Position numbers and translations under genes: made by a program. Under the pieces are notes generated by a model. The model ran no database searches and had not been told where the DNA came from. It saw only the letters and a program-made list of their open reading frames with translations. 64,000 nucleotides of DNA from Marsupella aquatica (Eukaryota > Plantae > Marchantiophyta): positions 18,811,048 to 18,875,047 of the forward strand of contig OZ316891.1 of assembly GCA_973895155.1 (NCBI GenBank), written 5' to 3'. Numbering within the stretch: position 1 is the stretch's first letter; each line of letters begins with the position of its first letter. Shown here in pieces: positions 1 through 64,000 of the stretch.

Positions 1-1519
1 TATGTGAACTGCCACAGTTGTGGAAACCAATTTTTGGCTATCGCAAGGAAAGCCTGAAGGGCCAACAGTTAACTAATCACCTTAACAATTTCCCCGTAAT
101 TTTAGGCACAAATCCACAAATACCAAAATCCCAAACATTACCATTGAAGAGAGTGGGCTGTGGGCTGCTACATTCAGGGTGATGGGTGACCAAGAATGAA
201 GGAAAAGGGATAGTTATATTTCATCGGACAAATGAGACTGTAACCATTGCCTTGTTGGATGGGTCAATGCTGCCGCCCTCCATTTTTGAAAATCCTGAAC
301 TGAGTCATATGACCATTACAGGATATACCATAAATGGGCATCTATAGGGGCGTCTTGCACAGGGTCTTGCACAGGGTCTTGCATGTCAAATGTCCTGAAA
401 ATTTGGCTCTAACCACTCCTACATTGTAAGTATAAAGCGCATCACAAAGCTTCACAGAATAGACTAAGAAAAGAGCTATTTTATTTGTTTTAATAGAAAT
501 TTAAAGGTTGGGACTTTCAATGGCCCTAAACTTTCCTGCCCTTGTCCTTGACTGTGCTCAAAATAATGCTGCTGTTAGGCCTACCTCAGGTGGGAGTTAA
601 GGTATAAATGTTACGTTCACTCATAGAGTGCTATCAGCTAACTGAAGGGCCAATTTTCTGAGGACCTTTTACATTCAAACAGCTTAGCTATAGCCCAGCC
701 TTGAGATGTTTGTAACTTATTAGTAAAGTGCAATTAGAAGCAACTTCCTTGGCTTATTATCTAGAGTGACTACTCTAGACTCTAACTCCAAGTGAGGGCA
801 TAACTGAAAGTGAAGGTGTACACAAAAAGTAAGGGTTGCAGACCAAAACCAGGAATAGGGGCAATGAGGAGCAAAAAATGGCATGGAATTCTTTTTTCTT
901 CAAAGGTTTTTTCACTCCTCATCTCCCAGTCAAAACGTTTCTCACTAGGCTCACTTTCTACAGTAAAGCCTCTACACCATGACTTTAAAGACATAACCCA
1001 AAGTGAGGGTGCACATAGGCAACAGGGATGGGGGCAAGATGAACAAGAAATAATAATAAAGAACTTTTCTTTGCAAGTTTTTGTTGTTGGGGTAATCAGG
1101 ATAGTGCATCAATTTTGAGAGCCCCTAATTTCGACATCCGCCACAGTATAGTACTGAAGATTTGTCGGTAGCAATGCTGTCTCGACGTGAATGTCAGTGT
1201 GGGTCCTAAAGACTGGTGATTGTATTTCCCCCCTCTTCCCTATTGCCATGTCGCTCGGGGAGAGCCGAGCAAACTGCCACATACTTGTCGCGGCTAGAAC
1301 CAGACTACTGTACGTTGCTAGTGAAGCTTTAGTGTTCAGTGACGAGAAAACAGCACAGCCATAGCGTCACCGAAAGAAAGGGAGCAAGAAAAGGCGAACG
1401 CGAGAAATCCGACTCTCGAGAACGGAGAGGAGAAAAAATCGTGCGGAGAGGAGCCCAGACAAGGAAGCAAGAGGCGAGGAGAGGAGAAGGCAGGGTTGTA
1501 TCGAAGGCACCGCCCATCG

Positions 1520-28500: not shown

Positions 28501-28892
28501 GCACTCGAGAGCGCTGACCCGATTCCTCCAAAAATGAAAGCGGCGACTGCACGCCATCCGAACTTGAGCTCGGGCCACTCTTGATTTTCTTCAGCTAATT
28601 GGAAAACTCCATGATAGAATTTGTGACAGAGTTGAAGCCAACCTTGTCCTTGGTCGTGTACCAACGATTCCATTTCAGAGCTTGAGGTAGTCGAATCGTC
28701 ATTGAACACTTTGAAGACGTTTTCCGAATCCAGACTAGTACTGTAGGCTTTTAATTCAACATTCGATGCTAGACCATAAGGGCTCCCAAATGTGGGCGCG
28801 TGCTCTGCATCTGAAACCTGGAGGAGTAAGTTCGTTATAGTGAGGCAGAAACACAACACCAAACAGAACCGCATCCACGACGACCCATTCAT
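25548..28892 (-). CDS. Sulfite exporter TauE/SafE family membrane protein, 4 exons
   Basis: Exons 28892-27825, 27382-27239, 26867-26724, 25856-25548. Motifs: SSAGGIGGGGLFVP, FDAKTSAVLSNFMILGGS, LVDFDVVMLLQPNMLLG, AGLLGGLLGIGGGMIINP, PQVTAGT, YMGFHYPC. Confidence 0.92.
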
Positions 28893-29958
28893 CCTGGCTA
28901 CCAAAATTCAGTCCTCGTCCTCTTTTCCGCATCAATCGAGTAGTAGGCGACTGATGTTTCCTTCAGTCGCGTGTTGAGCTCAAATTCCAGGAAACAATCG
29001 TCCTTCTTGACGTTCCTCCAGCGGTGCAGTGGTGGTCTCCTGGAACCGACTTGCTTTCCACGTAATTGAACTCTCCCCTGGATGAGAGCTACCGGTATGA
29101 TTGAATGATTACATTACTATTTCCGTCGACTGCTTCTGTGGTGGAGATGTGGCTCAGCAACCTTTGGGCTGACAATCCCAATCCGAAAACAAGTTCTCAC
29201 ATCCAGCTCGAACCAAATTGGTCGTTATTAACTTTGCCTGAGTGACTCTCTCCAATTGGGGTGAAGAGTGTCATTACCACTGTGGACCGCAAGTTCGATC
29301 ACACACCACAGTAGCTAGCTCCCTCAATTTCCACCTGTTCTTCACTAGAATTACAGATCCTCTGACCATTGAGGATTAGTTAATATCTGCTGTACTGCCG
29401 CAGGGATGCTTCTTCCTCAGCATCGTGCTGCCTTAGGACCTGTCGTTGCCTATCTTCGGTCTGCAATCAATACCTGACGAGCGACGGCCAGCCGCGGACC
29501 GAATTTCTTTTAAGTATTCTTTTCTCGTCACAGGATGTGTATCTGAGGTAGACTTATTATTGTACTTATTATATTTTATATCTACTATAAAATATAATCT
29601 GCTGACTTCCTCTATTATTAGCTACAGAAGTTTTTGGACGTGCTTTTGCTTTACTCAACAACTAGGAACAAGCTTCCCGATAATTGCACATCTAAATGCT
29701 CCAGCCGAATACCTAGAAGGAACAACTCTCACCCAGTAAAAGAATAATCAGGTTTATAGTATGAAAAATCTATTCAACCGGTGGGAGCTTGCATTATCAC
29801 ATAACACAGTAGACGATGTGCAATCATCCATATGGTGTACTATGCTATGGTCTGTAGTGTCTGAGGGAGCATGGTCTCCAACATTAGATGGCGCATCCAC
29901 TTGAACTTGTTTAGTCTATCGTTTAATGTGCTAGTGATGGTCTCATTGTGGTGTTCTA

Positions 29959-31312
29959 GGCATTCAAAGAGACGAGTCCCTGGAACAGCATTAACTGTAC
30001 CTCGGGGACTCCCCCAAAGCCTCCCGGAAGGAAATCCCTGAGTTTTCCCCTTTTTGCACCCGTCAGTTTTCAGGCCATGATCACACTCGCTGCCCCTGGC
30101 TCCCTCTCAATTAGAGACTTTCTCTCCCTCTCACTTAGAAACTTAATTTCATTCAACTTTCTTATCCTCACTTGTGTAGTGCCTTTTTCCCTTACATCTC
30201 TTTGTGGGAGTATTAGTTTAAATTTCTTGGACTCCATGGAGGGTTCTCGGGTATTGTCCCGGTATTGAAAATAAAACAAAATTGACAGTAGCTGACATTA
30301 TTTAAATTTCTTGGACTCCATGGAGGGTTCCGGGTATTGTCCCGGTTTTGAAAGAAAAAAAACTTGAATTCCATGGAGGCAATAGTTTGACAGTAGCTGA
30401 CATATTTTGACTCCCTTTGCAAAGTCTGGCCCCAGTCTAGTTTTAGTAGTTGATTTATGAGGGGTGGATTACTAAGTGAAAAATCACCTGAGCTCAAACT
30501 CTTGCCACTAAATTCTTCCCCAGTTCATCGTTGTATTCCATGCCTTCCAGACAGCCCATTTAAGTTAATGTATTGAGAAGATTCCAAATTTTACAAGAGG
30601 GAATTGCTGAACATAGATGTTTTGATTTCAAAACACTAAAGTTACAAAGCTAGGCACATTTATGAGCTAGGCATGAATGCATTGGTTACCCATCTGGAAG
30701 GCCTGAAATACAACGATGAACTGAGGAAGAATTTAGTGGCAAGAGTTTGAGCTCAGGTGATTTTCCACTGAATAATCAACCACTCATAAATTAATGACTA
30801 AAACTAGACTGTGGTAGGACTTTGCAAAGAGGGTCAAAATGTGTCAGCTATTGTCAAACTATTGCCTCCATGGAGTTCAAGTTTTTTGGTTTTTTTCAAA
30901 TCCGGGACAATACCCGGGAAACCTCCATGGAGTCCAAGAAATTTAAATAAAATTCCAGCTACTGTCAATTTTTATTTCTTTTCAAAACTGAGACAATACC
31001 CGAGAACCCTCCATGGAGTCCAAGAAATTTAAACTACTGTCAAAAGATTGCCTCCATGGAGTCCAAGAAATTTAAACTAACACTCACACAAAGAGATGCA
31101 AGGGAAAAAGGCACTACACAAGTGGGGATAAGAAAGTTGAATGAAGTTGTCTCAAATTGAGAGGGAGCCAGGGGCAGCGAATGTGGTCATGGACTGAAAA
31201 CTAAAGAGATGGGTGCAAAAAGAGGGAAACTCAGGGTGCTCCTTCCGGTAGGCTGTGGGAGAGTCCCGAGGTCAGTTAATGCTGTTCCAGGGACTCATCT
31301 CTTTGAATGTCC
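29959..31312. mobile_element. Non-autonomous foldback/MITE-like DNA transposon with ~600-bp inverted arms, TA target
   Basis: Left arm 29959-~30570 is the reverse complement of ~30680-31312 (GGCATTCAAAGAGACGAGTCCCTGGAACAGCATTAAC vs GTTAATGCTGTTCCAGGGACTCATCTCTTTGAATGTCC). TA on both sides. Internal repeats ccatggagtccaagaaatttaaa. Confidence 0.88.
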
Positions 31313-35814: not shown

Positions 35815-37259
35815 GAGGGATATGCTCAATAGACCCCCTCCAGCAGAAACTTTACTTGATCAGCCCCCTCATTATGGCCCGTACCCTTTTCCCCATGTAA
35901 GGCCCTTTTCCCCGTGTAAGGCCATACTGCACAGTTTTCAGCCTTATTCTATGACTTTTCAGAGTCCCCATTCAACAATGCAATAATCGGGCAAAAATCA
36001 CAGCGACTGTGCTAAGGTCGATTAGCAACGGGACCTCGTAATTAGAAGTCAAAATCGGGCATTTGCACATCCACGCCGCCACGATCAACATTAGGGTTAT
36101 GTTATGCTAATGCGAATACATTGACATGAATGTATTCTATTTGTAAACTGATCTCCGCATTTTTTAATATCCTCCCATCCCGACTTTTGTCCATGCTCGA
36201 TAACAACTACACTCAACATTCCACGAGGCGCACGACGTGGACACCCTTCCCGTGTGGTACTAAGCCATTTTTGTGGTAGCTTCAGTGGTCTTCAGATGCA
36301 ATCTAGCTTGAGGTAGCTTCAGATACAATGTAGCTTCATTGGAAGGCAAGGAGGCCCATGATACATCTAGACTGCAAGGTCACAACTCGACTTGCAACTT
36401 GTACTGGAAACATTTATTAATAAAAAGCAAGTTGCATTCATTATGTTCTGATGTATAAAAGTTATTCATTCTGCTGTCCGAGACTACCTTCAGTTTGCAC
36501 CTTCAGTTTTGGAAGACATCGTCCACATTGTCTTCACACCACACTTAGCAATTTTTCCAACGACAGGATATTCTGCTTCAAGAAGCCATTTGAGCAGGGG
36601 TAAATGGCCGATGTTGTGGGTTTTGGAAGACATCGTCCACATTGTCTTCGCACCACACTTAGCAATTTTTCCAACGACAGGATATTCTGCTTCGAGAAGC
36701 AATTTGAGCGGGGGTAAATGGCCAACACTAGTGGTTTCACACAAGATGCACATGAGAACTGCAAAACAGTTTCAAAATATGTATAACATCTCTTAAACCC
36801 TAAACTATCGTGCGCCTCATGGAAAGTTGAGTGTAGTTGTCATCGAGCATGGACACAAGCCGGGATGAGAGTATATTAAAAAATGCGGGAATCAGTTTAC
36901 AAATAGAATACACTCATGTCAATGTATTCGCATTAGCATAACATAACCCTAATGTTGATCGTGGCGGCATGGATGTTCAAATGCCCAATTTTGACTTCTA
37001 ATTACGAGGTCCCGTTGCTAATCGACCTTAGCACGGTCGCTGTGATTTTTGCCTGATTACTGCGTTGTTGGATGGGGATTGTGAAAAGTCATAGAATAAG
37101 GCTGAAAACTGTGCAGTATGGCCTTACACGGGGAAAAGGGCCTTACACGGGGGAAAAGGGTACGGGCCATAATGAGGGGGCTGATTGGGGCAAAAAAGTT
37201 TGGAGGGGGCTGATCAAGTAAAGTTTCTCCTGGAGGGGGTCTATTGAGCATATCCCTCC
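35815..37259. mobile_element. Mutator-like (MULE) non-autonomous element with ~420-bp TIRs and 9-bp TSD
   Basis: GTATGGCCC at 35806-35814 and 37260-37268. Arm 35815-~36235 is the reverse complement of ~36808-37258. G-starting long TIRs with a 9-bp TSD are typical of MULEs. Confidence 0.88.
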
Positions 37260-45550: not shown

Positions 45551-45948
45551 TGTTGGAAATGAGCCTCCCTTGTAGCAAGTGTGGCTCAAGGGAGGGTGTT
45601 GGAAATGAGCCTCACTCAACTGACGAGGGATGCAGGCATCAAGGGCCTGTAGCTCAGTGGTAGAGCACTATGATGTACACTGGAGGTACTAGGTTCAATT
45701 CCTAACCGGTCCATGCTGTTGACAATTCCAGCATGGTATCAGAGCCAAAGAACAGGAGTTTCCCTTGTAGCAAGTGTGGCTCAAGGGAGGGTGTTGGAAA
45801 TGAGCCTCACTCGAACTGATGAGGGATGCAGGCATCAAGGGCCTGTAGCTCAGTGGTAGATCACTATGATGTACACTGGAGGTCCTAGGTTCAATTCCTA
45901 GCCAATCGTTCAATTCCTAGCCGGTCCATGCTGTTGACAATTCCAGCA
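45551..45948 (+). mobile_element. TRIM (miniature LTR retrotransposon) with a tRNA-like cassette in each LTR
   Basis: CATAA duplication (45546-45550 and 45949-45953). LTRs TGTTGGAA...TTCCAGCA at 45597-45733 and 45792-45948. tRNA-iMet PBS TGGTATCAGAGCC at 45734 and PPT AAGGGAGGG before each LTR. A deleted extra unit occupies 45551-45596. Confidence 0.9.
45643..45713 (+). pseudogene. tRNA-derived sequence inside the TRIM LTR (second copy ~45839-45928); anticodon unassignable
   Basis: 71 nt. Acceptor stem GGGCCTG/CCGGTCC, D arm GCTC-AGTGGTA-GAGC, T arm CTAGG-TTCAATT-CCTA(A/G). A box TAGCTCAGTGG and B box GGTTCAATTCC are intact; the anticodon stem is mispaired with a 6-nt loop. Confidence 0.8.
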
Positions 45949-49147: not shown

Positions 49148-49526
49148 TGTCATACATAGGCCCCCTTTGGATATACTAGGGGAGAGTTGGCCCTCTCCCC
49201 TCTTTTCCTTCCCTTCATTGAGTTCCTTTGCCATTGGGATCATGTTCCTTTGCCATTGAACCCCAATTTAAGGAAAACCAAACTTTGGAAATTCCAAAAA
49301 TCACTAAATATTATTATTTTAATAAAAAGGGGGCGACATGACGCGTGGCTGTGCGTGAAACCCTGAAAATGACTGCAACGTCACATTTTAACCAATCCAA
49401 CTTGACGGGACCAAGAGACATGCTCACGCGAATAATAATAATAGAGAAATAAATCTTTGAGATCCTTTATATATGATAACCTGTATATAAGGAGTTTACA
49501 AATAGTTTCTAGAACGACAATACAAA

Positions 49527-50255
49527 TTAATCTGATCTCATGCCGACTATTATTTTGGAAGCGTCCAAAATTGGGCGTCTATTAAATTGCTCTACTAGAT
49601 ATCTATCTCCATGCCTCTGAATCACAGGGTCTTCCCATAGAGTATGATTATAATCATAATCTCTAAAAATAGATTTAACTGGCCAATCTGGATAATCTCT
49701 TCCATTGGCAATGACAAGCGGCTCACAAGAGTTTGCTAGCTTGCTAAGATACGGAATCAGCAAGTTAATCAGGAAACTGTCGTCGACCGACCCAAAATAT
49801 TTGGGCGGAAATAATGATCCAACAACAGGATCTAAACAAGCATGAAATGCATCGGATTCGATAAGCATTATATTTTGCTGCAGATACGCCTTTGTATAAA
49901 TTCCAACCTTCTCAAAACACTTCAAAAATATCCGCTTATTTGATGTCACCCAATCGCATAAGTAACAATGAGACTGATCCCAAATATACTTAAATGAGGC
50001 CATTTCCATCGCAGTCAAAATAGATGCTAAAATCTGATCTAAAAGGTTCTTCCCAAGAGAGGACCAGATCCCTACATCGAAATTCTCAAAATAGAATCTC
50101 AAGAATTTGTGAAGATGAGGCCTTGGAAAAATGTATATATTCCCAATCCGAATTCCAGTTGAGACCGCCATCAGTCGGGAATGCGGTGCAGTGTAACAGA
50201 GTAGATGCTCCATGTCTAAAACTATGAGCCCATTTTCTCTGCTGCAATGAATCTC
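49527..50255 (-). CDS. FCP1/NIF-like HAD domain exon 3 (open reading frame; candidate alternative last exon)
   Basis: Acceptor ctctacag|GAG (phase 0). Motifs LIVLDMEHLL, FPRPHLHKFL, FDVGIWSS, FKYIWDQSHC, FLK, NIMLIE. The DxDxT motif is degenerate. Confidence 0.7.
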   Translation of the reverse strand, partial: EIHCSRENGLIVLDMEHLLCYTAPHSRLMAVSTGIRIGNIYIFPRPHLHKFLRFYFENFDVGIWSSLGKNLLDQILASILTAMEMASFKYIWDQSHCYLCDWVTSNKRIFLKCFEKVGIYTKAYLQQNIMLIESDAFHACLDPVVGSLFPPKYFGSVDDSFLINLLIPYLSKLANSCEPLVIANGRDYPDWPVKSIFRDYDYNHTLWEDPVIQRHGDRYLVEQFNRRPILDASKIIVGMRSD

Positions 50256-50341
50256 CTGTAGAGAAACACAAGAAGATGCATGAGCCCGTATGAATGGAGT
50301 CATGCGAATGGTCGCGTCACATATTACAGAGACAACATCCT

Positions 50342-51049
50342 CTACACTCTGGCCATTGATAAGTGACGTCTATTGAAGTGCTTGATAAGAACTTGATCCG
50401 CATGTCTCTGCACATACAGATGCTCCCATATATCCTCGTTCAGATCCCAATCTTGATGTAGATTTCTAATCGACCAGATGGGATAATCGAACTTGTTAGC
50501 GAACGCAAGACAAAGCCCTGAATTTGATAGCTTTCATAAATATGGAATGAGGTCATCCCTCAAAAAGACATCATCCAACGATCCTTGAAACGACTTAGCG
50601 AACAATAATCCGCATACAGCTGTCTGGCATGTATGGGAAGGACAGGCATCAATCTGGATTATATTCTTTGGTCGATAATCTTGAAACATATCACGTAGTC
50701 TCTCGATAGATTTGAAGACAACAATCTTATAATTTTTCTTCACATAACCAAGATTCCAACAATGATCCCTCGTGAACACATATATCAGCTGCGACAGGTC
50801 GGTGCTCGACAACACCTCTGAAAGTATCTGATAAACCAGTTTATTGTCAAGAATAGACTAGACCATCACATCAAAATGATCATAACATAATTTTATAAGA
50901 TCATGAAGATGCAGCCTCAGAACGACACATAGAGATCCGATACGAATTCCAGGTGTCGACTTGAGCTGAGGAGTATATTTTGAAACAGAGCACAGGAAGT
51001 TTTCTAGTCCTAAAACTAGAAGTTGACGCGACCTGCTCCACTTAGACAC
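50342..51049 (-). pseudogene. FCP1/NIF-like HAD domain exon 2 with two in-frame stops
   Basis: Acceptor tttacag|GTG (phase 0). Reads through stops at ~50858 (VMV*S for VMVWS) and ~50534 (LIPYL*KL). Collinear with exon 3 (GIRIG, LIPYL.KL.NS, DYP.W, QRH.D, FNRR). Confidence 0.72.
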
Positions 51050-51174
51050 CTGTAAATGAACAATTTGATTCTCATATTATGCAATTGCAAACAACCACGC
51101 GACCGGGCGCGTCACTCCCAAAAGTTCAATTTCAATCAATTTATAAATAATAATTGATAATAAACAATAAATGT

Positions 51175-54100
51175 TTACTTATTGGACTTATCCCGGGCTT
51201 CTATAGCACGGTCTTTTTCGGCAGATAAGTATTTCATAAATTCGTCAAACTTTTCTAAATGGTCTTTATTCCCCTGATTACGAATGATCACATTTCTCCT
51301 CCAAAGATTTGTCTTATCAATATAATCTTTCTCAAGATTTTCTTGAGAGAACGTTGGAATCCCATATCCACTAAGGAGCTCGCGGAATGTCAACTTGTCA
51401 ATTGACATGTCGCATAGATATGGATATAGTTTCTTTCTAAAAAATAGGTCATCATCGAGCCCAGAATATGCATCGGGATACAGCGATGAATAGAAATCAT
51501 TAAGGCTTGTCTTATATGCAGCGTCATCGATAAGAATGACATTCTCGATGTTGTAATCTTTAATATCGGCGGCAATGTCCAAGAGACATTTGACAAATAA
51601 GGGGATGTCATTATTATTCTTCCCAATAAGTCGAGTTGATTCTTGTCCCCATATAAATTTAATACGTTTCAAAACTTCGGGTCTTAGTATCAGCCTTACA
51701 CAAGATAGAATATTCCATTTGAACATGCACGACCAGATCACAATGTCGTATAGATCTTCCACCTTCTCAAGAAATTCCATTAAATCAGGCCTTGGATAGA
51801 TAACCTTGTGCATCTGTCTCACACCCCTTGACCGAATGGGCATCCCAGGGCTGATCTTCTTTGACCAGATAAGTACCCGATTCAGATCAAAAATTACAAG
51901 TCTCTTATGAACCGGTGACTTCTTTGCCGATGGATTAGGCGCCATCTGTACGTGTGATTTTTGTGCCGCAGGGTTTGGAGAACGGACTAGAACGGTCTGT
52001 TTGTTTCCCGCCTCCGGACGATCACCAGACTTTCGGACTGGTGCCTTCGATACTTGATCAGGGGGTTTCGGGATAGGCTTCTGTAAAACATTAAGAAATG
52101 AAAATAAGTTTATAATGCGAACGGTCGCGTGACTACAAAGAGAGACACTGAAATGAAGTGTATTACCTGTACAAGACGGTCGTTCAGTGCTGGAATTCTG
52201 CCAGAAATGTCAATCATAGTAGCACGGATCCCGGTAACTAGGTTACTTATGGATGTCGGCTTGCGGAAGTCCATGTCAAATAACGACAAGACTATCTCCC
52301 TACAGAATTTCTCAATTTGATCCGCGGCAAAATTAATTTCATTTCCTTGACACAAGCACTTGGCGTATCTCAAGATAAACACACCACAACTGTGGCTGTC
52401 ACTCTGGTGAGGAATATCAATCCGATATATCCGTTCCCAACCTGAGAGATCCAAGTTGACACCAGTTCTCCAGCCAATTTCGTCGGCGTAGTACTTCCCA
52501 ACAATATCTAGCACCCCAGGATTTTGTCGATTATGAACTAGAGAATCTAGGTACTCCAGCCGTTTCTCCTTCGGATACAAGACTACCAATGACCAATGTT
52601 CTTTCACAGCATTGTGTACTGGAAAGACTTGTTTGTCGTAATCACTGATTTTTAGCGGAAACTCCTTTGTCCAAGCTGCTCTCTCCTCGTCGAAAATGGT
52701 AGGATCCATGGAGAGAAGCTCAAAATGGTGTGTTTGGAAGAATTTGACAAGGTCTGACTTTCCAACTCTATCGAGAATCAGTTCGAAAAAACTCAAATAA
52801 CCGTTAATTATATCATCGGTGAGCAACTCGCGCGGTCTCAGACACATCATATGTTTCCTCTTGAATGAGTGTTGTAAGAACTTGGTCAATTAGCTCTTCC
52901 ATATCCTTAGAAGGATCAAGGCATTGATCTATTTGACTAGCCAAATTTTCAAAAAACTGCAAAAAACAGAGATTTCAGTACGCCTTCAAATAACGTACTG
53001 AGGTTGTAGCCTAAGGGTTCTACCTCAGAAAACAGAAACAATAACAAATCAATAATAAAATAATGACGTCTATAATAGAAACTTTAAGCTTATAGCTTGC
53101 GAATGACCTTTGGATTGGGTGGATCCAGCCTTTTCGCAGCTGATCTCTTGGGTGCCTCAATCGCAACAACATCCTTCAGCCCTCCTCGAGACCGTAGTGA
53201 TCGCTCCACCAGACCAGTTTGCGAAGGTTGGAGCGATGAGGCGGGAAAACCTTCAAATGGTTATGGCATTTGATTCAAATATTCCACAATCTGGGAATCC
53301 GATTCCAAAATATCCGGTGCCACAATTTCTGCGCGAGTGACCTCTGCAATATATCGAGGTCGAGACCACGAACCCGGTCGCGTCAAGTCAGCTGTTAGTC
53401 TCTTAACGACTTGAGCCGAGTCTGGTGCCAAAAATGTTCCCAGGTCTTGCACTCGATTCTCGGAAAAGTGGACATTATTGATGATTGTCTCCATTCTGGA
53501 TGCAGTGGCAGTCTTCTCCTCGGTAATCAAAAGACTCTTCCAATATTGCAAAGCAAGGACTGCCTGGACTCGGAGCTGCTCCGATGAATATTTATTCCAA
53601 TCATCCAACGAGACCGTACTTAAGGGTGGATCATTAAATTCAAACTCTGGGCGAAGAAAATAGTCTAATATTTTCTTCTTAACTGCAACTGAGGGTGAAG
53701 AAGGCTTCTTCAAATTCAGCCTTATTTTTGGTAGACGTTGTGCCTCAGGAATAAGCGAAAGATCCTTGGCCCTCTCGGCCTCCTTCCTCGCTGCCTCCAG
53801 TCTTCCGGCTTCTTCTCTCTCCAGTCTTGCGGAATCAACCTTTTCCGCCTCCAACTTCTCCGCCTCCACCCTCTCCGGTCTTGCGGTCTTGTCCGCCATC
53901 CTCTCGGCCAGCAGCCTCTCAGCCGCCACACTCTCCGCCTTGGCCCTATTTCCCTCTGTCACTAAAAGGACTCTCGCAGCCTCCACTTTCTTAGCCTGGG
54001 CTTTCTCAGCCTCCGCGTTCTCGGCCTGGGCTTTCTCCGCCTGGGCTTTCTCAGCAAGGACTCTCGCAGCCTCCGCTTTCTCAGCCTCCGCGTTCTCGGC

Positions 54101-57100
54101 CTGGGCTTTCTTAGCCTCCGCTTTCTCAGCCTCCGCTTTCTTAGCCTGGGCTTTCTCAGCCTCCGCTTTCTCAGCCTCCGCTTTCTCAGCCTCCGCTTTC
54201 TCAGCCTGGGCTTTCTTAGCCTCCGCTTTCTCAGCCTGGGCTTTCTCAGCCTGGGCTTTCTCGGCATCCGCTTTCTCAGCCTGGGCTTTCTCAGCCTGGG
54301 CATTCTCAGCCTCGGCTTTCTCCTTCTTCTTCGCGGCAGTTGCTTTTCTAGCTGCTGCCTTTTTCTTCTTAACCTCCTTCTTTTGAAGCTCCTCTTGCCG
54401 GGCCGCCTCTTGTCGGGACGCCTCCTCCTGCCGGGCCGCCTCCTTCTTTTGAAGCTCCTCTTGCCGGGCCGCTTCCTTCTTTTGAAGCTCCTCTTGCCGG
54501 GCCGCCTCCTGCTGGGCCTCCTCCAGCCTGGCCTCCTCCTGCCGGACCGCCTCCAGCCTGGCCTCCTCCTGCCGGGCCGCCTCCTGCCAGGCCTCCTCCT
54601 GCCGGGCCGCCTCCTCTCTGGCCTCCTCCTGCCGGGCCGCCTCCTCTCCGTCCACCTCATGTCGAGGCTCCTGTGTGGCCTCTTCATCAGAGTCCTCAGC
54701 GTCCTCAGAACCCTCCATCTCCTCGCCCTCTTCATTAGCGTCCTCAGCGTCCTTCATCTCCTCTCCGTCACTCTCTTCATCTCCTCTATTGTCGGAATCT
54801 CCGATGTCGTTCTGCGTATCGGTCATCCACTTTGGATCTTGGTCATTGACATCCCCATCCGTGTCACCTTCCGCGTCACCTTCCCCCTCGCCATCCGCAT
54901 CACCATTGCTCCCTGCATCCTCAACATTGAAGCCGCAGTCGACTTGATCTGAATAAAATCAGATCATTTGATAAGAATGACTCACGCGCATATTCGCGTG
55001 AAAAGAAATGTTATGAATGTCCACGCGCATATTCGCATGACGCAATAAAAAGTAAGAGGTTTCAAAAGTAACTTACCTTGGATTGGCCCACTAGGGTACT
55101 CCATTGGTCGAATGTACAATCGATCGGAATCTTTAGAGAGTGCATACTCTTGCAATAATTGATTACAAATATTATCAGGGATATGTTGTTCGTGGAGGAC
55201 ATCCAAAACATCAGCCCTGAGAGCAGTTACGGATGGACGGTACTTCATTAATTTATCTATACATTTTTCTATACTAGCCCGTACTGGGTCAATCAATGAC
55301 AGCGTTGTATCAATTGTCGCCGTGGTGTGTTGCAAGAAACAAGACAACTCCCTATGCGTTGCCACAGGGCAGTAATATTTTACATTGGATCCAGCATCCT
55401 GTAAAAAAAGCCGAAATTAGTTCACAATATTAATTGAGAATATAATAATCTAAATAATCTTAAAATCGAAACCCCAAAATATAAATCTCAAAACTTACCA
55501 TTAAGCACTGGATCAAGTTTGTTCCCTCACCGAAGCATATAGCCCATTCCCCACATTGGACGAATTGACTAACAATACTTTCAAAGAATGGAAGTGTCTT
55601 TTCTGGGGAAGGTGTCATGAACTCGCTGCTCTCTTCAAAATTGGCTATCTTCTCAATATGATATTTGGAGACCAATTGGAACTCGAGGGCTTGTGGATCG
55701 CCCATTGTGCTGAAGGCCAAGCTGTGAAAAGCGTAGGTTACAATAAGCTTCTTCTCCTTCGGCCGCTTCTGAATATAATGGCTATCGATAGCAACGTAGT
55801 GTGTACTTCCCTAATTCCCGTTTGATTAAGTAAGACTCAATGGGAGAGGCTACAATAATAACCATATGGTGTGGTTTTGCCCCTATCTCGCTAGTAGCAC
55901 GAAATAACCCCTCATAGAATGAGCAATTTGGCGGACGCAAATCTCCCATTGATGAGGGATCAAAATAAATCAAGCTCGCAAGGTTCTTGTCTTCACGTAT
56001 GATACAGTCTGCAAACCCAACATTTTGTATATCCTGCAGGGATCGCAATTTCAGCCTCTCACCGACCGGCCGCACTAGTTGGTTTCCTTGACTATCAACT
56101 GATTTCTGTATTCCTTCCACCAACCTGTAGAATATAGGGTCGATCTCCTTCAACAAATTATCATTACTAATATTTACATTTAAGCACTTCTTCAGATAAC
56201 CACTCAACGCATCTCTCAACTGCTTCAGCACCATCTTGTCGAGCTTAAAGCGATCAATCATTCCTTTAACCCGCAATTTCTGCGCTGAATCTGTCAGACT
56301 TTTAAGCTCCGTCCGGGTGGATGTATCCCCGTTGAGTTTACTCAATAATAAAATATCAAACTCAACTTCCGTCTTCTTCTTTATACATAATTGCTCCAAA
56401 CTCATGCTGGTCGTTGACAACACTGGAGCCTCAGAGGACTTCCTCGCCTTCCTAGATTTCACTTTGATACTTCGGTTTTTGAGTATAGACAGTCTTCCGC
56501 TCAACATATATTCCGCTGCCTTTCGAAGAACCGAGTCTGAGCACCCTTGACAAGAACGGAACGTCTTCTTCAGAAGATGATAAGCACATGGATTATCCGC
56601 AATTTTGACGGCGTCCCTCTGTAAAATTCCGTTGTAAATTACAAGCTCTCCTGTCCTTGATAGTTCGTAGACCTCCATCCACTTCTTGAATATTTCGTCC
56701 TCCATTGTAAAGAGAAACGGAGCCAATTCTCCAAATTTCATCATTTTGTTCTTCCCCATTTGAGCCCATGGGCAAACAAAACTCGTAGCTCTCATAAATA
56801 CCTGAAAAACAATGGAAACATGACAATTCTAAGCTTGACGCGACCATTCGCGTGACAAAAGTTTAAACGATAATGTGATCGAAGAGGGATATTTATATAC
56901 CTTCCAATTTGGATGATGATAATGTGATCCAGGCCGCCCAAATGAGTTCCAAATATTACGACACTGTCGTACAATGGTGAGAAACTGTCCTTCTTCCATT
57001 GATGTTTGATGACAGTGGTTCAGAGCTTTCGATAATCCCATCAAATAAACATTATTGTCGTTGTTGAGCGTTGCCCAAAACATTACAGCTTCTACAGTAC

Positions 57101-58143
57101 CGCAAGTGTCTCGTACAACTTGGCTGACTTTGTCGTCCTCTCTCAGCAATTTGTACGCCATTATTGTGTGCTGGCCTCCGAGTATCCAGAAATGACTGGT
57201 CATAATGTCCTCCTCCTTTGGCGATGAATCGTAGGGCGTCTCATTGTAGTCGGGATCTCTGTCGGCCTCCGACTAAACCCACTTCACAGGGACTAAAAAG
57301 CAGCATTGCTTCTTGAACTTTATAGCCAAATGAGAGAGGAGTGAATTCTTTAGCCTATCTATGTAATCCTGATTCCACTCTCGGCACTTGATGTGGTCCG
57401 GTGCAAGATGACAACGTGATGTCTCAACAAAAAATGACTTGCTGTTAAATATATTCACAGCACTATATTCTTTGAGGAAAGAATCGAACAGAGCCCCTCC
57501 ATTCGCTGAGGTAATTACTTTCGGAAGATTCTCCGCCGAGTATACTTCAACCTTGCTCACTGGCGGGGCCTTTCCCAAGCGAAATCCCTGGTTGAAAGGA
57601 ACTCTCTGGAACTCAAGTATGTCAATAATGTATTGACAAATCAAATCTCCCGTTGATCCCTCTGGATCGGAAGGATATCCCACACTAGTAACCTTTTCCA
57701 AGGCGTGCCTTGCACCTAGAAGATCATCGATTCTGGGCTGATTGAAGGTTACATATTGCGTTCGATCCAAATAAATGCTTATTTTGTCTTCCTGCTGGTC
57801 GTCGCTAACTAGCAGAACCAATCCCTCTGTACACTCTTTAACTTTCATGTTCTTCTCAAAGAAACACCCACCCGAGAATTTTTGATCTCTCCAAAACTGT
57901 AGCTTTATCATTTCTTGCCACCACAAGACAGACAGCCCCATTGCGAACGACTATTCCAAAATCGGATATCTCAGTCGATTCAAAGAGATGGATACTCTTC
58001 GTCTCTATTGTTCTCTCTCTGATTGACTTTCCTTGATATGCAAGTATGGATGTCTCCGCGGGAGTCATTTTTGTCTTGGTTTTCTTACGAGAAGCAGCTT
58101 TAGACGAGTCTCTTTTCCGCTTTGAGGTTCCGGTAGGATCCAT
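51175..58143 (-). pseudogene. Large spliced TE-like gene (~2,100 aa): ParB/Srx-like, degenerate N4/N6 DNA methyltransferase-like, acidic and coiled-coil repeats, Ulp1/C48 protease, FCP1/NIF HAD
   Basis: Phase-compatible GT-AG exons: 58143-56901, 56801-55499, 55398-55077, 54948-53108, 52956-52167, 52080-51175. Motifs: REWNQDYIDRLKNSL...FWILGGQHT; LIYFDPS...PEKTLPFFESIVSQFVQCGEWAICFGEGT; CLRPRELLTDDIIN...HWSL...YLDSL...QSDSHSCGVF; VIFDLN...RPDL...IWS...LIDD. In-frame stops at 57273 and 53261; frameshifts near 57860, 55800 and 52890. Confidence 0.72.
53990..54650 (-). repeat. Coding minisatellites (15-bp AEKAQ/AEKAE and 21-bp EEAARQE units) predicting a long charged helix
   Basis: Repeats gctttctcagcctcc / gctttctcagcctgg and gccgggccgcctcct within ORF 53261-54826. 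Confidence 0.85.
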
Positions 58144-58217
58144 TCTGAAATAGACAAATATTGAAAGTTAAACGTTTATTATAAAATACTAACACGCGCA
58201 TGGTCGCGTCGTGCCGA

Positions 58218-58740
58218 ATTACATTTTAGGAACATTTATCCTGACCCAATCTTCTCGCTCATCTTCATCTAACCAAAACCAAAGGTTCCTAAACATGTCA
58301 AGTTCAGATCCTTCAAATCCACCCAGAATGTCCAGCGGCGGGAGAGTTCTGATGGATTCTGTAAATCTTAATGCTACACTCAGTGAAGTCAAATGCCTTC
58401 AAAGCGATTCATATCCTGGTCTATCAGTGAAGTCGTAAGCTACCAAGGTGACCGTCGCCCAAGTACTACTATAAGTAACTATGTGGCACCACTTCTTACT
58501 GACTGTTCGAATGGCGATCAAGTCCATGACCCGATTTTTAATCGCAGTATCCGACAAATTCCCAAGATAGTGGAAAAACTCTTTGACTAATGGCCAAATA
58601 TATTTCTCGACAATATCGTCCGGAAAACCGGGTATCAGGTCTTCAGCTTGACTCCATATCATGTTTCGGTTGATAACCTTTGCACGTGCAATGCGCTCCA
58701 TCATCATTTGATGATGAGATTTTCGATTCATGTCAAAGGA
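58218..58740 (-). pseudogene. F-box-like ORF 2 (one in-frame stop)
   Basis: LIPGFPDDIVEKYIWP...LIAIRTVSKKWCHIV; acceptor ctgcag at 58741. Reads through TGA at 58399 to WLDEDERED...PKM*. Confidence 0.6.
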
Positions 58741-58783
58741 CTGCAGCATAATATGGAAAAGATTAAGAACAAGAACCTATCCA

Positions 58784-59242
58784 TTAAGAACTGGGACCAC
58801 CGAGATTATGAGAAAATCTACCAAACCTTTTGATTAGGACATCTCGTTCTTCCTCATCTAAATTGTTATATTTGTTCGTAGAGAGAGACTCATTTCCGAT
58901 CGGTTTAGTAGGATTTCCTGGGAAAGCCAAATCTAATAAACTCAACTTGATTACACCCAGATGATAGGTATTCCCAACAAGGTGGCGCCATCTGCGACAC
59001 ACCGAAGATAGTCCTACAAACTCATCCAATTCCTTTATTGAGAAATTTCCTGCATTAGCCGAGGAATTAAAAGTCTCCTTGATCCGAGGCCATATCAATT
59101 CCGCGACAATGAAATTTGGAAGTCCAGGTAGTAGTGTTTCAACAAATATAGAATATCCCGCCAGTAGACCATCTTGGCTTCTGTCCAAAACATCAAATAT
59201 TGGGCATAGATATCTGAAGCTCTCCAGACCAGGTTTGCCCAT
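58784..59242 (-). CDS. F-box-like ORF 1
   Basis: LLPGLPNFIVAELIWP...LSSVCRRWRHLV; paralogous to ORF 2 (LDEEERD vs LDEDERE). The 5' end is uncertain. Confidence 0.55.
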   Translation of the reverse strand: MGKPGLESFRYLCPIFDVLDRSQDGLLAGYSIFVETLLPGLPNFIVAELIWPRIKETFNSSANAGNFSIKELDEFVGLSSVCRRWRHLVGNTYHLGVIKLSLLDLAFPGNPTKPIGNESLSTNKYNNLDEEERDVLIKRFGRFSHNLGGPSS

Positions 59243-59365
59243 GACTCTTTTCAGCCAAATGATATATCCCAGAGATTATTTTCTACAAATCAGAATGTAT
59301 AAACAATTCTTTGAGAGACTGATTTTTTCGAGTCACAACATGATAAATCATAAATGTTGCTTCGT

Positions 59366-61380
59366 CCTCTAACAGAACCAGTCAATGAGAGAGCTACCTC
59401 AGACGCGAATGGTCGCGTCAACTGCCCCTAAATGAAACCTTACCTCCTCTAACAGAACTAGTCAATGAGAGATCTACCTCAGATGCGACTAGTCGCGTCA
59501 ACTGGTCCTAAAAGGAACTTTACCTCCTCTAACAGAACCAGTTAATGAGAGAGCTACCTAAGACGCGACTGGTCGCGTCACCTGAACCTAAACAACTATA
59601 TCCACTGAACCTTCCTTGTGGAGATTTGGATATGGTACGCGCTCAGTAAATCTATCCAGTTTCCTTCTCACACGCGACTGGTCGCATCAACTGGTCCTAA
59701 AAGGAACCTTACCTCCTATAACAGAACCAGTCAATGAGAGAGCTATCTCAGACGCGATTGGTCGCGTCACCTGAACCTAAACAACTATATCCAGTGAACC
59801 TTCATTGTGGAGATTTGGATATGGTACGCGCTCAGTAAATCTATCCAGTTTCCTTCTCACACGCGATTGGTTGCGTCAACTAGTCCTAAAAGGAACCTTA
59901 CCTCCTCTAACAGAACCAGTCAATGAGAGAGCTACCTCAGACGCGACTGGTCGCGTCAACTGGTCCTAAAAGGAACCTTACCTCCTCTAACAGAACCAGT
60001 CAATGAGAGAGCTACCTCAGACGCGATTGGTCGCGTCAACTGAACCTAAACAACTATATTCACTGAACCTTCCTTGTGGACATTTGGATATGGTACGCGC
60101 TTAGTAAATCTATCATGTTTCCTTCTGACACGCGACTGGTCGCGTCAACTGGTCCTAAAAGGAACCTTACCTCCTCTAACAGAACCAGTCAATGAGGGAG
60201 CTACCGCAGACGCGACTGGTCGCGTCAACTGGTCCTAAAAGGAACCTTACCTCCTCTAACAGAACCAGTCAATGAGAGAGCTACCTCAGACGCGACTGGT
60301 CGCGTCAACTGAACCTAAACAACTATATTCACTGAACCTTCCTTGTGGACATTTGGATATGGTACGCGCTTAGTAAATCTATCATGTTTCCTTCTGACAC
60401 GCGACTGGTCGCGTCAACTGGTCCTAAAAGGAACCTTACCTCCTTTAACAGAACCAGTCAATGAGGGAGCTACCGCAGACGCGACTGGTCGCGTCAACTG
60501 AACCTAAAAGGAACCTTACCTCCTCTAACAGAACTAGTCAATGAGAGAGCTATCTCAGACGTGACTGGTTGCGTCAACTGAACCTAAACAACTATATCCA
60601 CTGAACCTTCCTTGTGGAGATTTGGATATGGTACGCGCTCAGTAAATCTATCCTGTTTCCTTCTGACACGTGACTGGTCGCGTCAACTGGTCCTAAAAGG
60701 AACCTTACCTCCTCTAACAAAACCAGTCAATGAGAGAGCTACCTGACGCGACTGGTCGCGTCAACTGAACCTAAACAACTATATCCACTAAACCTTCCTT
60801 GTGGAGATTTGGATATGGTACGCGCTCAGTAAATCTATCCAGTTTCCTTCTGACACGAGACTGGTCGTGTCAACTGGTCCTAAAAGGAACCTTACCTCCT
60901 CTAACAGAACCAGTCAATGAGAGAGCTACCTCAGACGTGACTGGTCTCGTCAACTGAACCTAAAAGGAACCTTACCTCCTCTAACAGAACCAGTCAATGA
61001 GAGAGCTATCTCAGACATGACTGGTCGCGTCAACTGAACCTAAACAACTATATCCACTGAACCTTCCTTGTGGAGATTTGGATATGATACGCGCTTAGTA
61101 AATCTATCATGTTTCCTTCTGACACGCGACTGGTCGCGTCAACTGGTCCTAAAAGGAACCTTACCTCCTCTAACAGAACCAGTCAATGAGATAGCTACTT
61201 GACGCGACTGGTCGCGTCAACTGAACCTAAACAACTATATCCACTGAACCTTCCTTGTGGAGATTTGGATATGGTACGCGCTCAGTAAATCTATCCAGTT
61301 TCCTTCTCACACGCGACTGGTCGCGTCAACTGGTCCTAAAAGGAACCTCACAATATTTTCACGCGACTGGTCGCGTCAAC
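59366..61380. repeat. Higher-order tandem array of 80-bp (A, about 14) and ~110-bp (B, about 8) units, each carrying the palindrome GACGCGAC-TG-GTCGCGTC
   Basis: Order approximately AAAB AB AAB AAB AAB AB AAB AB plus a terminal palindrome at ~61360; about 23 palindromes. Confidence 0.92.
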
Positions 61381-62339
61381 AGCTCAAACAACTTTTGGAC
61401 AATAGGATAATACAGTGATACAACTGTGATTACTGACTCGTACGGACAAGGAAATCCGAGTAAGCATGATTTCATTCATTTGTATTCATTCATTTGTATT
61501 CATTCATGAACTTTACAATAATTCAGATGTTTGAGCTCTGTCATTGTGAAACTATTATATATCAAAAGTTTAGAGAATGATCCAGCTAAGATGATTCAAT
61601 TTAGCAGTCTACTGGTTGTATTCGTCAATTAAAGGATTCAGTGTAATGAGATTCATATAACATGAGAGTTTATATGATTAAATTCACAGCGTGCAAGTTT
61701 GTAATGACTTACTTAAGACGATTCAGGTTGTATTTTAATTAGTGAGTTTGTATGATTCACACATATTTGAGTTTACAAACAAACCGCATTATGAAAACTC
61801 AGCTTAACAATCAAGAGAAATTTTAGCAAACCACAATCAACACCAGCAGAAAATGTAGAAATTGCACCTGAATTCTGAAAAATTGATGTACTCGTCTGAG
61901 AGATTGACGTCCAAGCACTTGAAGACCTTGTTGCGGCATTCCAGAAAGTAAATATAAGATTGAAGATATTAATATGCTAAGCAACAACAACACAGCTTCT
62001 ATACTTCTATACATAGAGCTTCGCTGCCACCAATTGAATAACATGTGCTTAATGCTAAGGAGCTCATTATGTCGAGTTAAAAAGACTCTTTCAGAAGTAC
62101 AATCAAAGCTGTGGATAGGCAAACTGAGCATGAATAAAAGCGCACTAAACCTGAAGATTCAAAGAGGTGAAACAAACCTGAATGCTGATGGAAGGAGCTG
62201 AAACAAGCTGCCAAAAAGTAGTTCGAGCTGCTGAAACACATTGATCGAGTTGATATGAGCTTAAAATTGGCTGACACGAGCTGATACAAGCACTCCCAAA
62301 AAGCTAGCTGCAATGAACTAGCAAACTAGAAGTGAATAC

Positions 62340-62545
62340 GAGCTGTAAATGCGAGCTGCAATGCGCCAACGAGCTCCTAGTCGAAACGATGGACAACTAC
62401 TAAGAGCTGCAACGCGCCGTCAAGCACCTGACCACAACGAACGAGCTGCAATGCGCCAACGAGCTCCTGGTTGAAACGATGGACAACTACTAAGAGCTGC
62501 AACGCGCCGACAAGCACCTGACCACAATGAACGAGCTGCAACGAC
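62340..62545. repeat. ~91-bp tandem repeat near the putative 5' end of the element
   Basis: gagctgcaatgcgccaacgagctcc...aaacgatggacaactactaagagctgcaacgcgcc.caagcacctgaccacaa occurs twice, plus scattered gagctg motifs. Confidence 0.75.
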
Positions 62546-62884
62546 AAAAATGAAATCCAGGGCAGGAGCGAGAGCGAGAGCGACGAGAGCAGGCGCGCGA
62601 AAGTCTAGGGAGCGAGAAACAACAACAATGAACAGTGAACTCGAGACCGCGGGCGCCGACACTAAGGAAGGACTAATTAGGGTATTGTTTTAGCATAACC
62701 CTAATAACAGCCTAGCGACAAGAAGGTTCCAGATGATCTCCGTACAGTCCACCATCGACTGAACAAACTATGCAATCGTGAGAAAAAGATTACCGGATTC
62801 CTTTTGATTTGCCGTACTAAAGGAGATTTCTATTTGATCGCCAATTTGAAATTTAAACCGGTAATTATGCAACTGCGAAAGATT

Positions 62885-63125
62885 GTTAGTGGGGACCCCC
62901 GGATCCGGATCCGGATCCGTATCTTCACTATATCTGCCAATTCAAATCCAAAATGTGAACGAACGACAACTTTCTCACGATCGTTCCATCACGTAGTGGA
63001 GGCGAATTTCAAAATCATTCCATTTTGGTAGTGGAGACCGTCGGATCCGGATCCGTACTCCACTCTCTATCTTGCCAATTCAAACCCAAACTCTAAACAA
63101 CGTAAAACGATTCTCACGGTCGGGG
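62885..63125. repeat. ~140-bp imperfect duplication with GGATCC repeats and ttctcacg motifs
   Basis: tagtgg.gacc...ggatccggatccgta...tgccaattcaaa...ttctcacg at ~62887 and ~63029. Confidence 0.65.
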
Positions 63126-64000
63126 AGAACCGATATTCAAAATCAATCCTGTACAATGATTCTCACGACTGGAGACTCAACCAATTTTCAAAATCAAAAT
63201 CGAGTCCAGATGAACACATCCTCCATGGAGTCAATAGACTGATCTCATTGCTCACGGATCATTCTTCATTTTCAGTTTCTCCTGACCAGGATACTAGCTG
63301 GGCTCTCAGCGGAGGCTGATCCAAGGCACATTTGAGGTGGAGCAGATTGGATCATTCGACTATTCCTGCCGGAGGCGGAGCTCATTCAAGCAACGCTGGC
63401 GCAGTTCTTGTTGTATCACCTTCAATCTTGGGGAGAGCACATCCGATCAAGCGGGAGAGTTGCGACGAAGCGAGACGACAAACATTTAGAACCTCCATAG
63501 TCTGCCTCATTCATCGAAGCATTCTAGCGGACCAACAAAGAGCGGCTATTCTGAAATCACAGTCTGGTCGAGGATTTTGATCTTGATACGATCAACAAGT
63601 TATCATTCTCTGGTGGTGGGATTCGATCACGATACTCAAGGAAATTGGAGTTCGAAGGAGGAGGCTTAGTTGGCTGGGACGAGGAGGCTACGCTGGAAGG
63701 AAGAGGCTTGGCTAGGAGGAGGGTTTCCGCCAACATCGAAGGGTTGCCGCCAACATTGCTGAGACCACACGCAACTGAATAACTTGTAAGTATCAATCAG
63801 CATTAATTCCGCAATGAAGGAGGAGAGTAGTTGCCTTAAATCACGCATTCAATGCATGAATTGAGTCAATGAAGTTATGGTCCAATTTCTCACTCCAATT
63901 TTGATCAATCCATTTTTCAAGTCCAATACAGAAGCAATGTATCAGAAGTACTAGTAGAGGATCCGAATGAATTCTCTAGTCTAAAATTGTATGGCGTACG

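Follow-up and report, generated by a model that had tools for sequence, protein, structure and literature searches.

In the window (the whole 64,000-nt stretch of DNA that was analysed), an exon encoding a Ulp1/C48 protease is followed on the same strand by three intronless HAD/NIF units. Their arrangement suggests that intact copies encode one large accessory protein whose Ulp1 exon is spliced in frame to any of the three units as alternative last exons, a reading to which we give slightly better than even odds (roughly 0.55). The gene is an accessory gene, now dead, that belongs to a mobile element, and the stretch that carries it is a decayed copy of an element with many copies, whose host is likely a plant. 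An earlier note on this DNA had missed the element.

The HAD/NIF units share one donor and have in-phase acceptors

The Ulp1 exon has a phase-0 donor at its end (CAG/GTAATA; last exonic base 52167). The acceptors before 52080, 51049 and 50255 share that phase and lead into the HAD frames in register. Coordinates and frames thus confirmed the donor, acceptors and paralogous units that the earlier note had described. What is seen on the DNA corresponds to alternative last exons: one donor in common, in-phase acceptors and a stop for each exon. Splice signals were scored on the minus strand between 49200 and 63950 with a crude matrix of plant splice-site frequencies, in which the three unit acceptors ranked 3, 5 and 7 among 1125 AGs and the donor at 52167 tied for 3rd–5th among 845 GTs. 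Read-through of this donor gives a short hydrophobic tail and then a stop.

Table 1. Features of the element in the window
Feature	Position	Strand	Remarks
Probable element end	49258..49300		Plus strand starts at about 49259-49262 with CCCCAATTT
HAD/NIF unit 3	49527..50255	minus	242 codons; candidate last exon 3; end stop 49529-49527
Palindrome, unit 2/3 gap	50302..50317		Contains the ATG at 50303, a change specific to this copy
HAD/NIF unit 2	50342..51049	minus	235 codons; candidate last exon 2; end stop 50344-50342
Palindrome, unit 1/2 gap	51097..51112		
HAD/NIF unit 1	51175..52080	minus	301 codons; candidate last exon 1; end stop 51177-51175
Intron, Ulp1 exon to unit 1	52081..52166	minus	86 nt; holds palindrome 52115-52130
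Ulp1/C48 protease exon	52167..52956	minus	Pfam PF02902 E 3.7e-17; SENP2 E 3.5e-12
Acidic and Ala/Glu/Lys repeat exon, main gene	53108..54948	minus	Copy-specific stop near 53263
Two palindromes in intron	54984..55038		
Middle exons, main gene	55077..56801 (55077-55398, 55499-56801)	minus	Methyltransferase-like by eye only; broken here
Palindrome in intron	56838..56853		Spacer in opposite orientation
First coding exon, main gene	56901..58144	minus	Acceptor 58144, ATG 58143; ParB-like segment; broken here
Palindrome, gap ahead of main gene	58194..58209		
F-box-like ORF 2	58219..58740	minus	Behind acceptor, ATG +9; one internal stop; Pfam F-box E 0.0037, below cut-off
F-box-like ORF 1	58784..59282	minus	Behind acceptor, ATG +40; Pfam F-box E 0.02, below cut-off
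Tandem array	59365..61385		80/189/269-nt units; holds 23 palindromes

Each unit ends in its own stop, as had been reported; two premature stops in the window copy of unit 2 (codons 64 and 172) had been overlooked. The gaps from stop to next acceptor measure 125 nt (units 1/2) and 86 nt (units 2/3), which replaces the earlier range of 40–130 bp. Units 2 and 3 were correctly described as having no in-frame ATG upstream of motif I; unit 3 does contain one ATG, at +22, but out of frame. Unit 1 has a Pro/Lys-rich linker of about 60 residues and its own in-frame ATG at 51945, the first in the exon and 20 codons ahead of motif I.

A scan for five A-rich poly(A) signals found TATAAA downstream of unit 1 (51145) and of unit 3 (49471). 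All five are missing from the gap between units 2 and 3, and three separate poly(A) sites are therefore doubtful. One common site after unit 3 would leave 3′ UTRs of about 1,700 nt (unit 1) and 900 nt (unit 2), which counts against alternative last exons. Such long 3′ UTRs invite decay.

Other copies lack the damage seen in the window

Six sequencing runs were compared with the stretch. They behave as DNA, covering introns and gaps with no joint at the proposed sites, and are silent on expression; runs X5 and X6 cover the stretch partially and served for single places only. The two stops of unit 2 are absent from most other copies, and the frames of units 2 and 3 are open elsewhere without an ATG before motif I. 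Likewise, neither the frameshift near 52890 in the Ulp1 exon nor the stop near 53263 occurs in other copies. The ATG at 50303, which had been offered as a start for unit 3 that would refute alternative last exons, is absent from most other copies, being replaced in 791/836 of the depth in run X1 and 545/577 in run X2. The Met of the unit 3 'DME' is also replaced (1264/1329 in X1 and 462/462 in X2), the family having DVE. High-depth contigs across the two distal acceptors differ from the window at 1 and 2 positions, creating no start, and an X2 contig indicates that the unit 3 acceptor and ATG-less start are common to the main family.

The units are old and retain their acceptor position in relatives

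Pairwise identity among the three units is 28%, 22% and 36%. All carry a family-specific C-terminal extension unlike other NIF proteins. In a phylogenetic tree, each unit and its relatives form a branch of their own (SH-aLRT 95, 98 and 97), and therefore the units are old and open. The three branches lie inside one branch (SH-aLRT 98), apart from host genes. Relatives at about 37–59% identity have long open frames and the same conserved extension. P0001 and P0155 have an equal longest contig (2683), which hints at tandem relatives of units 2 and 3.

A Gln lies 14 residues ahead of motif I in 5/7 relatives that are long enough, compared with 8/78 proteins outside the family; it was read from protein only, in ORFs that are gene-caller products of short contigs, and P0108, with motif I placed wrongly, was left out of the count. 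This Gln is likely the CAG of an acceptor, and three of the five relatives that have it lack a Met at −13 to −5. Calls for 14/26 relatives start beyond motif I. Among the 11 whose call takes in motif I, five carry a Met between −13 and −5, which counts against alternative last exons. Met is found at −12, just behind the presumed acceptor, in P0001, P0002 and P0009, where unit 3 of the window has ATT; P0007, P0010, P0026, P0003 and P0004 have no usable Met. Together, the absence of the stops, the 50303 ATG and the DME Met from most copies and the Gln at −14 in Met-less relatives favour alternative last exons. That proposal of the earlier note gains support, at the level of DNA and protein sequence, from the scarcity of the 50303 ATG, the open ATG-less frames of units 2 and 3 and the acceptor position kept in distant relatives.

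Peptidase_C48 was found in 0/51 longer NIF matches, a point against alternative last exons. Proteins of up to 2000 residues included no longer homologues of unit 1 or the Ulp1 exon; since this ceiling lies below the predicted 2,050–2,150 residues, the full protein could not have been found. A metagenome scan gave 78 loci, none a close relative, and among five inspected only the distant locus L065 was related, via its ParB-like gene. In L065, the NIF ORF forms a gene by itself, starting from its own ATG and lacking Ulp1.

Unit 1 keeps the motifs of its clade and units 2 and 3 are predicted to be inactive

The Pfam NIF search (PF03031; cut-off 21.8 bits) proposed in the earlier note placed all three units above the cut-off, at 39.1, 34.0 (computed with the premature stops read as X) and 53.1 bits for units 1, 2 and 3. 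Motif I reads DLNRV in unit 1, GLENF in unit 2 and DMEHL in unit 3 (DVEHL in the family). Active FCP/SCP CTD phosphatases have DxDx(T/V) at this motif (PMC7281111), which is absent from all three units. However, DxN is present in 11/11 comparison proteins of the NIF clade of unit 1. DLN is what this clade normally has, and DLDET, from which all three units had been said to deviate, is therefore the wrong yardstick; the deviation holds for units 2 and 3.

Indeed, unit 1 matches the DxN clade at each of the four motifs (DxN/S/K/DD), and its side of the family keeps the first Asp (7/7), the Lys (17/17) and the first Asp of motif IV (17/17). On the unit 2/3 side, the first Asp is retained in 3/7 and the second motif IV Asp in 1/13, the Asp-Asp being broken in 12/13. 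Unit 2 has lost the nucleophile Asp, and motifs I and IV of unit 3 are degenerate. These two units are predicted from their sequences to be inactive; the label of pseudo-phosphatase, given before to all three C-termini, fits them and not unit 1.

Unit 3, the only unit modelled, gave a mean pLDDT of 90.7, and Foldseek matched the model to SCP2, SCP1, CTDNEP1, UBLCP1 and Tim50 (best E 1.9e-10; 14–20% identity). Atlas matched unit 1 to generic NIF clusters only. The suggestion that the units read phosphorylated Pol II CTD found no support: the proteasome phosphatase UBLCP1 is the only solved structure matched by sequence, and Phe106 of the SCP1 CTD-binding pocket (Phe106, Val118, Leu155, Tyr158 and Arg178) has no counterpart at the same offset. 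This comparison covers Phe106 only of the five residues, at +10 from the first Asp with no indel assumed, where the units have K, K and P.

The main gene lies in a palindrome-rich mobile element

The Ulp1 exon aligns with SENP2 at the His-Asp-Cys triad and oxyanion Gln, for which a catalytic role is predicted. The first coding exon matches Pfam ParBc_2 below the cut-off (E 0.14) and resembles a gene of L065 (E 1e-5, with an intron at the same position); the L065 exon had no match among solved structures, and a two-sequence structure model of the ParB-like region reached pLDDT 34. Pfam, PHROG and Atlas gave no useful match for the middle exons (nothing above 0.81 in Atlas for the middle exon), and comparison of the middle exon with L065 was not significant (E 0.28). 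ParB-like and methyltransferase-like are thus unconfirmed labels, given below the cut-off or by eye. An ATG lies 1–40 nt past the acceptor in all three upstream ORFs (+40 and +9 in the F-box-like ORFs, +1 in the main gene), whereas units 2 and 3 have none.

A 16-bp palindrome, ACGCGA-N4-TCGCGT, occurs 30 times in the element (23 in the tandem array and 7 in introns and gaps) and 0 times in window positions 1–49000. The probable element end is marked by loose ends before 49259 in X2 (3 contigs) and X5 (2 contigs), and an X1 contig fits only from 49258. We take this end to resemble the CMC terminal consensus. It has no partner repeat within the window, which holds one end only. No transposase was recognised within the window, and it may lie outside or have escaped recognition; a broken plus-strand frame (63201–63998) that runs off the window has no Pfam or PHROG match. 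A Helitron-type end at 49176–49200 was rejected, since another, high-copy repeat accounts for that stretch.

Alternative explanations

A common non-coding leader could be spliced to every acceptor, each HAD unit then being its own small protein begun at an ATG or near-cognate codon beside the acceptor. The main gene and both F-box-like ORFs are built in this way, and the Met at −12 in three relatives, the ATG of unit 1 and the solitary NIF gene of L065 agree with it, the last two also counting against alternative last exons. Yet the main family has no ATG ahead of motif I in units 2 and 3, five relatives have no usable Met, and a phase-0 acceptor at a fixed distance across diverged relatives would be left unexplained, so we consider this unlikely. 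There is a smaller chance that units 2 and 3 are alternative last exons that use one of the earlier phase-0 donors of the main gene, in which case the proteins would be ParB-like and leave out Ulp1. The donors at 56900, 55498 and 53107 are phase 0, two of them equal 52167 in score, and any could replace it, a point against our reading; L065, moreover, pairs a ParB-like gene and a NIF gene without Ulp1. Such splicing must skip several strong internal exons, however, and the nearest strong donor is 52167.

It is similarly improbable that only Ulp1-unit 1 is made, with units 2 and 3 being old tandem duplicates in untranslated 3′ sequence. The broken motif IV on their side of the family and the broken unit 2 of the window would suit this, but both frames are open in other copies, the relatives retain long frames and the C-terminal extension, and the unit 3 model is of high confidence. 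Least probable is a constitutive Ulp1-HAD1-HAD2-HAD3 chain spliced through donors just ahead of each stop. A GT does overlap the unit 1 stop (51178), and some angiosperm-type NIF proteins have two domains in tandem; but the 51178 donor is weak (0.4) and in phase 2, the scores of acceptors of this phase near unit 2 are 0.3 and −4.6, and that of the phase-0 GT at the end of unit 2 is −4.6.

Proposed function and relation to known systems

With alternative last exons, the donor at 52167 would be joined to the acceptor at 52080, 51049 or 50255, behind a shared body of ∼1,800 residues (by coordinate arithmetic) with a ParB-like front, a repeat-rich middle and the Ulp1 protease. Tail 1, which retains the clade residues, may bind metal and phosphate, and tails 2 and 3, which have lost them, would serve as binding modules. 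If VANDAL and Plavaka elements are a guide, the protein would dock on the palindromes of its own element and strip SUMO there, countering host silencing, and the choice of tail would set the phosphoprotein partner engaged. A fuller picture, possible but clearly at less than even odds, is a plant DNA transposon with one promoter, virus-like splicing and two banks of acceptors, in which a leader is joined to either F-box protein or the main gene, and the Ulp1 exon to any of the three HAD tails. The products would be a palindrome-docking SUMO protease in one phosphatase-type and two pseudo-phosphatase forms, tuning the silencing of its own element.

The layout of F-box-like ORFs, ParB-like exon and 30 palindromes resembles algal Plavaka and Arabidopsis VANDAL elements. 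Giant Plavaka elements (EnSpm/CACTA group) of the red alga Bostrychia carry accessory genes PAG1-3, and the passages describing them report an accessory gene that opens with a ParB-like part and lies next to tandem inverted-repeat arrays, as well as DNA-methylase-type cargo and proposed self-binding (bioRxiv 10.1101/2025.02.11.637652). The tandem array with 23 palindromes is such a PAG3-type trait. In contrast, the Plavaka cargo comprises a 2OG oxygenase together with a methylase-SET gene, those passages mention no Ulp1, NIF, F-box or alternative-acceptor bank (bioRxiv 10.1101/2025.02.11.637652), and the present element differs in having no identified transposase in the window. VANDAL and Kaonashi elements (eudicot non-TIR MULEs) are described in the relevant passages as having a Ulp1 domain inside an accessory gene and a short motif, specific to the element, that recurs in tandem arrays, introns and the gaps between genes (PMC5735166, PMC13317346). 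The VANC21 motif is YAGTATTAY in one orientation, unlike the CG-rich palindrome here, and the same passages mention no NIF tails (PMC5735166, PMC13317346); the likeness proposed here is one of layout.

En/Spm TnpA/TnpD likewise make several proteins by splicing from one transposon transcription unit, and related families alternate between spliced and split-gene layouts, as the present element and L065 seem to do; there, however, splicing parts a transposase from an accessory factor, whereas here it would swap paralogous C-terminal domains (PMC13547354). Among NIF/FCP1-like HAD phosphatases, which share their fold with the unit 3 model, the DxN clade comprises proteins of plants and large DNA viruses.

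Of the accessory proteins with which transposons bind and shield their own element, only those of VANDAL are known in detail, according to the Bostrychia preprint (bioRxiv 10.1101/2025.02.11.637652), and a Ulp1 domain is described as common in such proteins, with its role unknown (PMC13317346). A literature search, with most subscription journals outside its scope, found no Ulp1-NIF fusion or three-tail cassette. In the present element, splicing appears to select which member of an old and conserved trio of phosphatase domains, one typical of its clade and two dead, is coupled to the Ulp1 domain. Such an arrangement, if real, would link the removal of SUMO with the reading of phosphate in a selfish element.

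A Ulp1 exon and three NIF/FCP1-like units

The three-unit feature described in the earlier note is real. The main gene includes a minus-strand Ulp1/C48 frame (Pfam E 3.7e-17) that matches SENP2 (E 3.5e-12), with the His, Asp, Gln and Cys all in place. As the note had stated, this exon closes at a phase-0 donor (CAG|GTAATA; final exon base 52167), and the three downstream HAD frames each start exactly at a phase-0 AG. All three passed the Pfam NIF cut-off, the domain search it had proposed, and share 22–36% identity; the upstream gaps, put there at 40–130 bp, measure 125 and 86 nt. Among 1125 AGs (49200–63950), ranked by a crude matrix built from plant splice frequencies, the acceptors of the units took ranks 3, 5 and 7 and are therefore not attributable to chance. 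Unit 2 of the window copy carries two premature stops.

Positions of the units, the surrounding element and other features of the window
Feature	Position	Strand	Description
Unit 1	from 52080	minus	NIF/FCP1-like frame, 301 codons
Unit 2	from 51049	minus	NIF/FCP1-like frame, 235 codons
Unit 3	from 50255	minus	NIF/FCP1-like frame, 242 codons
Main gene	ATG 58143	minus	ParB-like exon, middle exons, repeat-rich exon, Ulp1 exon
Two ORFs	upstream of units	minus	weakly F-box-like, Pfam score below cut-off
Tandem array	59365–61385, upstream of units	minus	2 kb; good donor GAG|GTAAGG repeated (at least 11 copies among top-listed sites) plus acceptor-like sites; could be a source of variable leader exons
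Candidate non-coding leader exons	62177–62535	minus	strong acceptor 62535; donors 62517, 62427, 62177; 90-nt duplication
Broken reading frame	63201–63998	plus	runs past window edge, divergent from accessory genes; no Pfam or PHROG match; possibly the start of a transposase
Short high-copy repeat	49189–49245		separate, just beyond element end; adjoins hairpin ~49179–49200
Spliced host gene	25551–28907	minus	sulfite-exporter TauE domain (Pfam E 4.2e-11)
Foldback or MITE-like elements	29961–31309, 35815–37258		inverted arms, long and nested, reaching 195 and 352 nt (90–93% complementary)
tRNA-like pair	45618–45903		two 90-nt copies separated by 196 nt; a probable SINE-type repeat

The units had been read as pseudo-phosphatases whose motif I, the first catalytic HAD motif, differs from the canonical DLDET. 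For unit 1 this does not stand, as all comparison proteins have DxN (11/11) and the unit-1 side retains Asp, Ser, Lys and Asp-Asp. On the unit 2/3 side the first Asp is kept in 3/7, and motif IV retains its second Asp in 1/13. Since these residues are retained on one side and mostly lost on the other, there are one clade-typical domain and two degenerate ones. The predicted fold of unit 3 resembles SCP/CTDNEP1/UBLCP1/Tim50, and among known structures the sequence matched UBLCP1 only. SCP1 has a CTD pocket (PMC7281111), which is unmatched at the one position compared, leaving the suggested reading of phosphorylated Pol II CTD unsupported.

The units end a decayed mobile element

The units form one end of a mobile element, with a probable terminus near 49259–49262. 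Four public runs (X1–X4), representing two coded organisms, have contigs that cover the stretch at high depth, which in X2 is 460–600 over the element against 16.6 in an adjoining flank contig with zero differences, although depth is not a copy number. Neither the opposite end nor a transposase (Pfam, PHROG) was found in the 64-kb window. All 30 copies of the palindrome ACGCGA-N4-TCGCGT (at most 2 mismatches) lie within 50302–61376, and none in 1–49000. The tandem array holds 23 and introns or gaps 7, six of these 34–49 nt ahead of an acceptor. Because one intron/gap copy has a reversed spacer, the palindrome is more likely to serve DNA binding than to act as a signal in RNA.

The window copy is decayed. 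Most or all of the depth in X1–X3 lacks both unit-2 stops, a stop near 53263 and a frameshift near 52890; in X4 the frameshift site is split and position 50536 uncovered. Of 53 majority differences tallied among those listed, some of which could be assembly errors of the window, 38 are of cytosine-deamination type, with 22 at CG and 10 at CHG (18% of C/G bases lie in CG), a pattern consistent with decay of a methylated plant transposon.

Predicted splicing into the units

The in-frame ATG at 50303, proposed as a possible separate start, falls within one of the palindromes and has been substituted in 791/836 (X1) and 545/577 (X2) of the depth. Likewise, the Met of DME is replaced in other copies (family sequence DVE). 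Across the unit-2 acceptor an X1 contig (depth 631) shows two differences, and across the unit-3 acceptor an X2 contig (depth 462) shows one, all synonymous-position or already-listed changes. Given these replacements and near-identical contigs, units 2 and 3 are open in the main family and, as noted for the window copy, lack an ATG ahead of motif I.

Relatives were found by running a profile against 1.84 billion representatives and are gene-caller products of short contigs, compared at the protein level only. Among the best 150 matches listed, the family has a common C-terminal extension. A quick IQ-TREE run (79 of 158 rows) separated it from host genes as a single branch (SH-aLRT 98), in which each unit clustered with its own relatives (SH-aLRT 95, 98, 97). 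Ulp1 was found in 0/51 longer NIF matches. Many metagenome loci (L008, L009, L011, L029–L061) have two NIF genes close together.

Units 2 and 3 might instead start from their own Met beside the acceptor, as a Met at −13 to −5 from motif I occurs in 5/11 relatives whose call includes that motif (three at −12). Against this stand the ATG-less main family and the seven of 26 relatives that reach at least 14 residues upstream of the true motif I: five have Gln at −14 (8/78 outside the family), the position of the window's CAG acceptors, and three of these five lack a Met at −13 to −5; 14/26 calls begin past motif I. A constitutive chain of all three domains in one protein is unlikely, as neither unit 1 nor unit 2 ends in a good in-phase donor.

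We favour alternative last exons, with splicing throughout deduced from DNA. An ATG lies 1–40 nt past each acceptor of the main gene and the two F-box-like ORFs but not those of units 2 and 3, so in the simplest reading a leader would be spliced to the 5′ ORFs, and a coding exon to the 3′ units. The Ulp1 exon has the closest strong phase-0 donor and would be joined to units 1, 2 and 3 through introns of 86, 1117 and 1911 nt. Joining to unit 1 is very probable; the full model, in which the Ulp1 exon may join any of the three, we put at 0.55.

Relation to known elements

Metagenome locus L065 has an intact two-exon ParB-like gene (462–6115 with the following NIF gene; second exon methyltransferase-like by eye) related to the main gene (E 1e-5, identical intron position). 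Its separate NIF gene, 1.65 kb further on, has its own ATG, lacks Ulp1 and falls outside the family branch. The locus appears to be a simpler, distant relative of the element's cargo. Bostrychia Plavaka elements have a ParB-like gene (PAG3) adjoining arrays of inverted repeats (bioRxiv 10.1101/2025.02.11.637652), and VANDAL elements encode an anti-silencing protein that can include a Ulp1 domain and that recognises motifs within introns, gaps and tandem arrays (PMC5735166, PMC13317346); both likenesses are of layout and not superfamily assignments. Shifts between spliced and split-gene coding are described for En/Spm (PMC13547354). Transposons with accessory genes are already known; what is new is the probable coupling of Ulp1 to NIF domains and the set of three paralogous candidate last exons, neither of which had a precedent in the literature searched.
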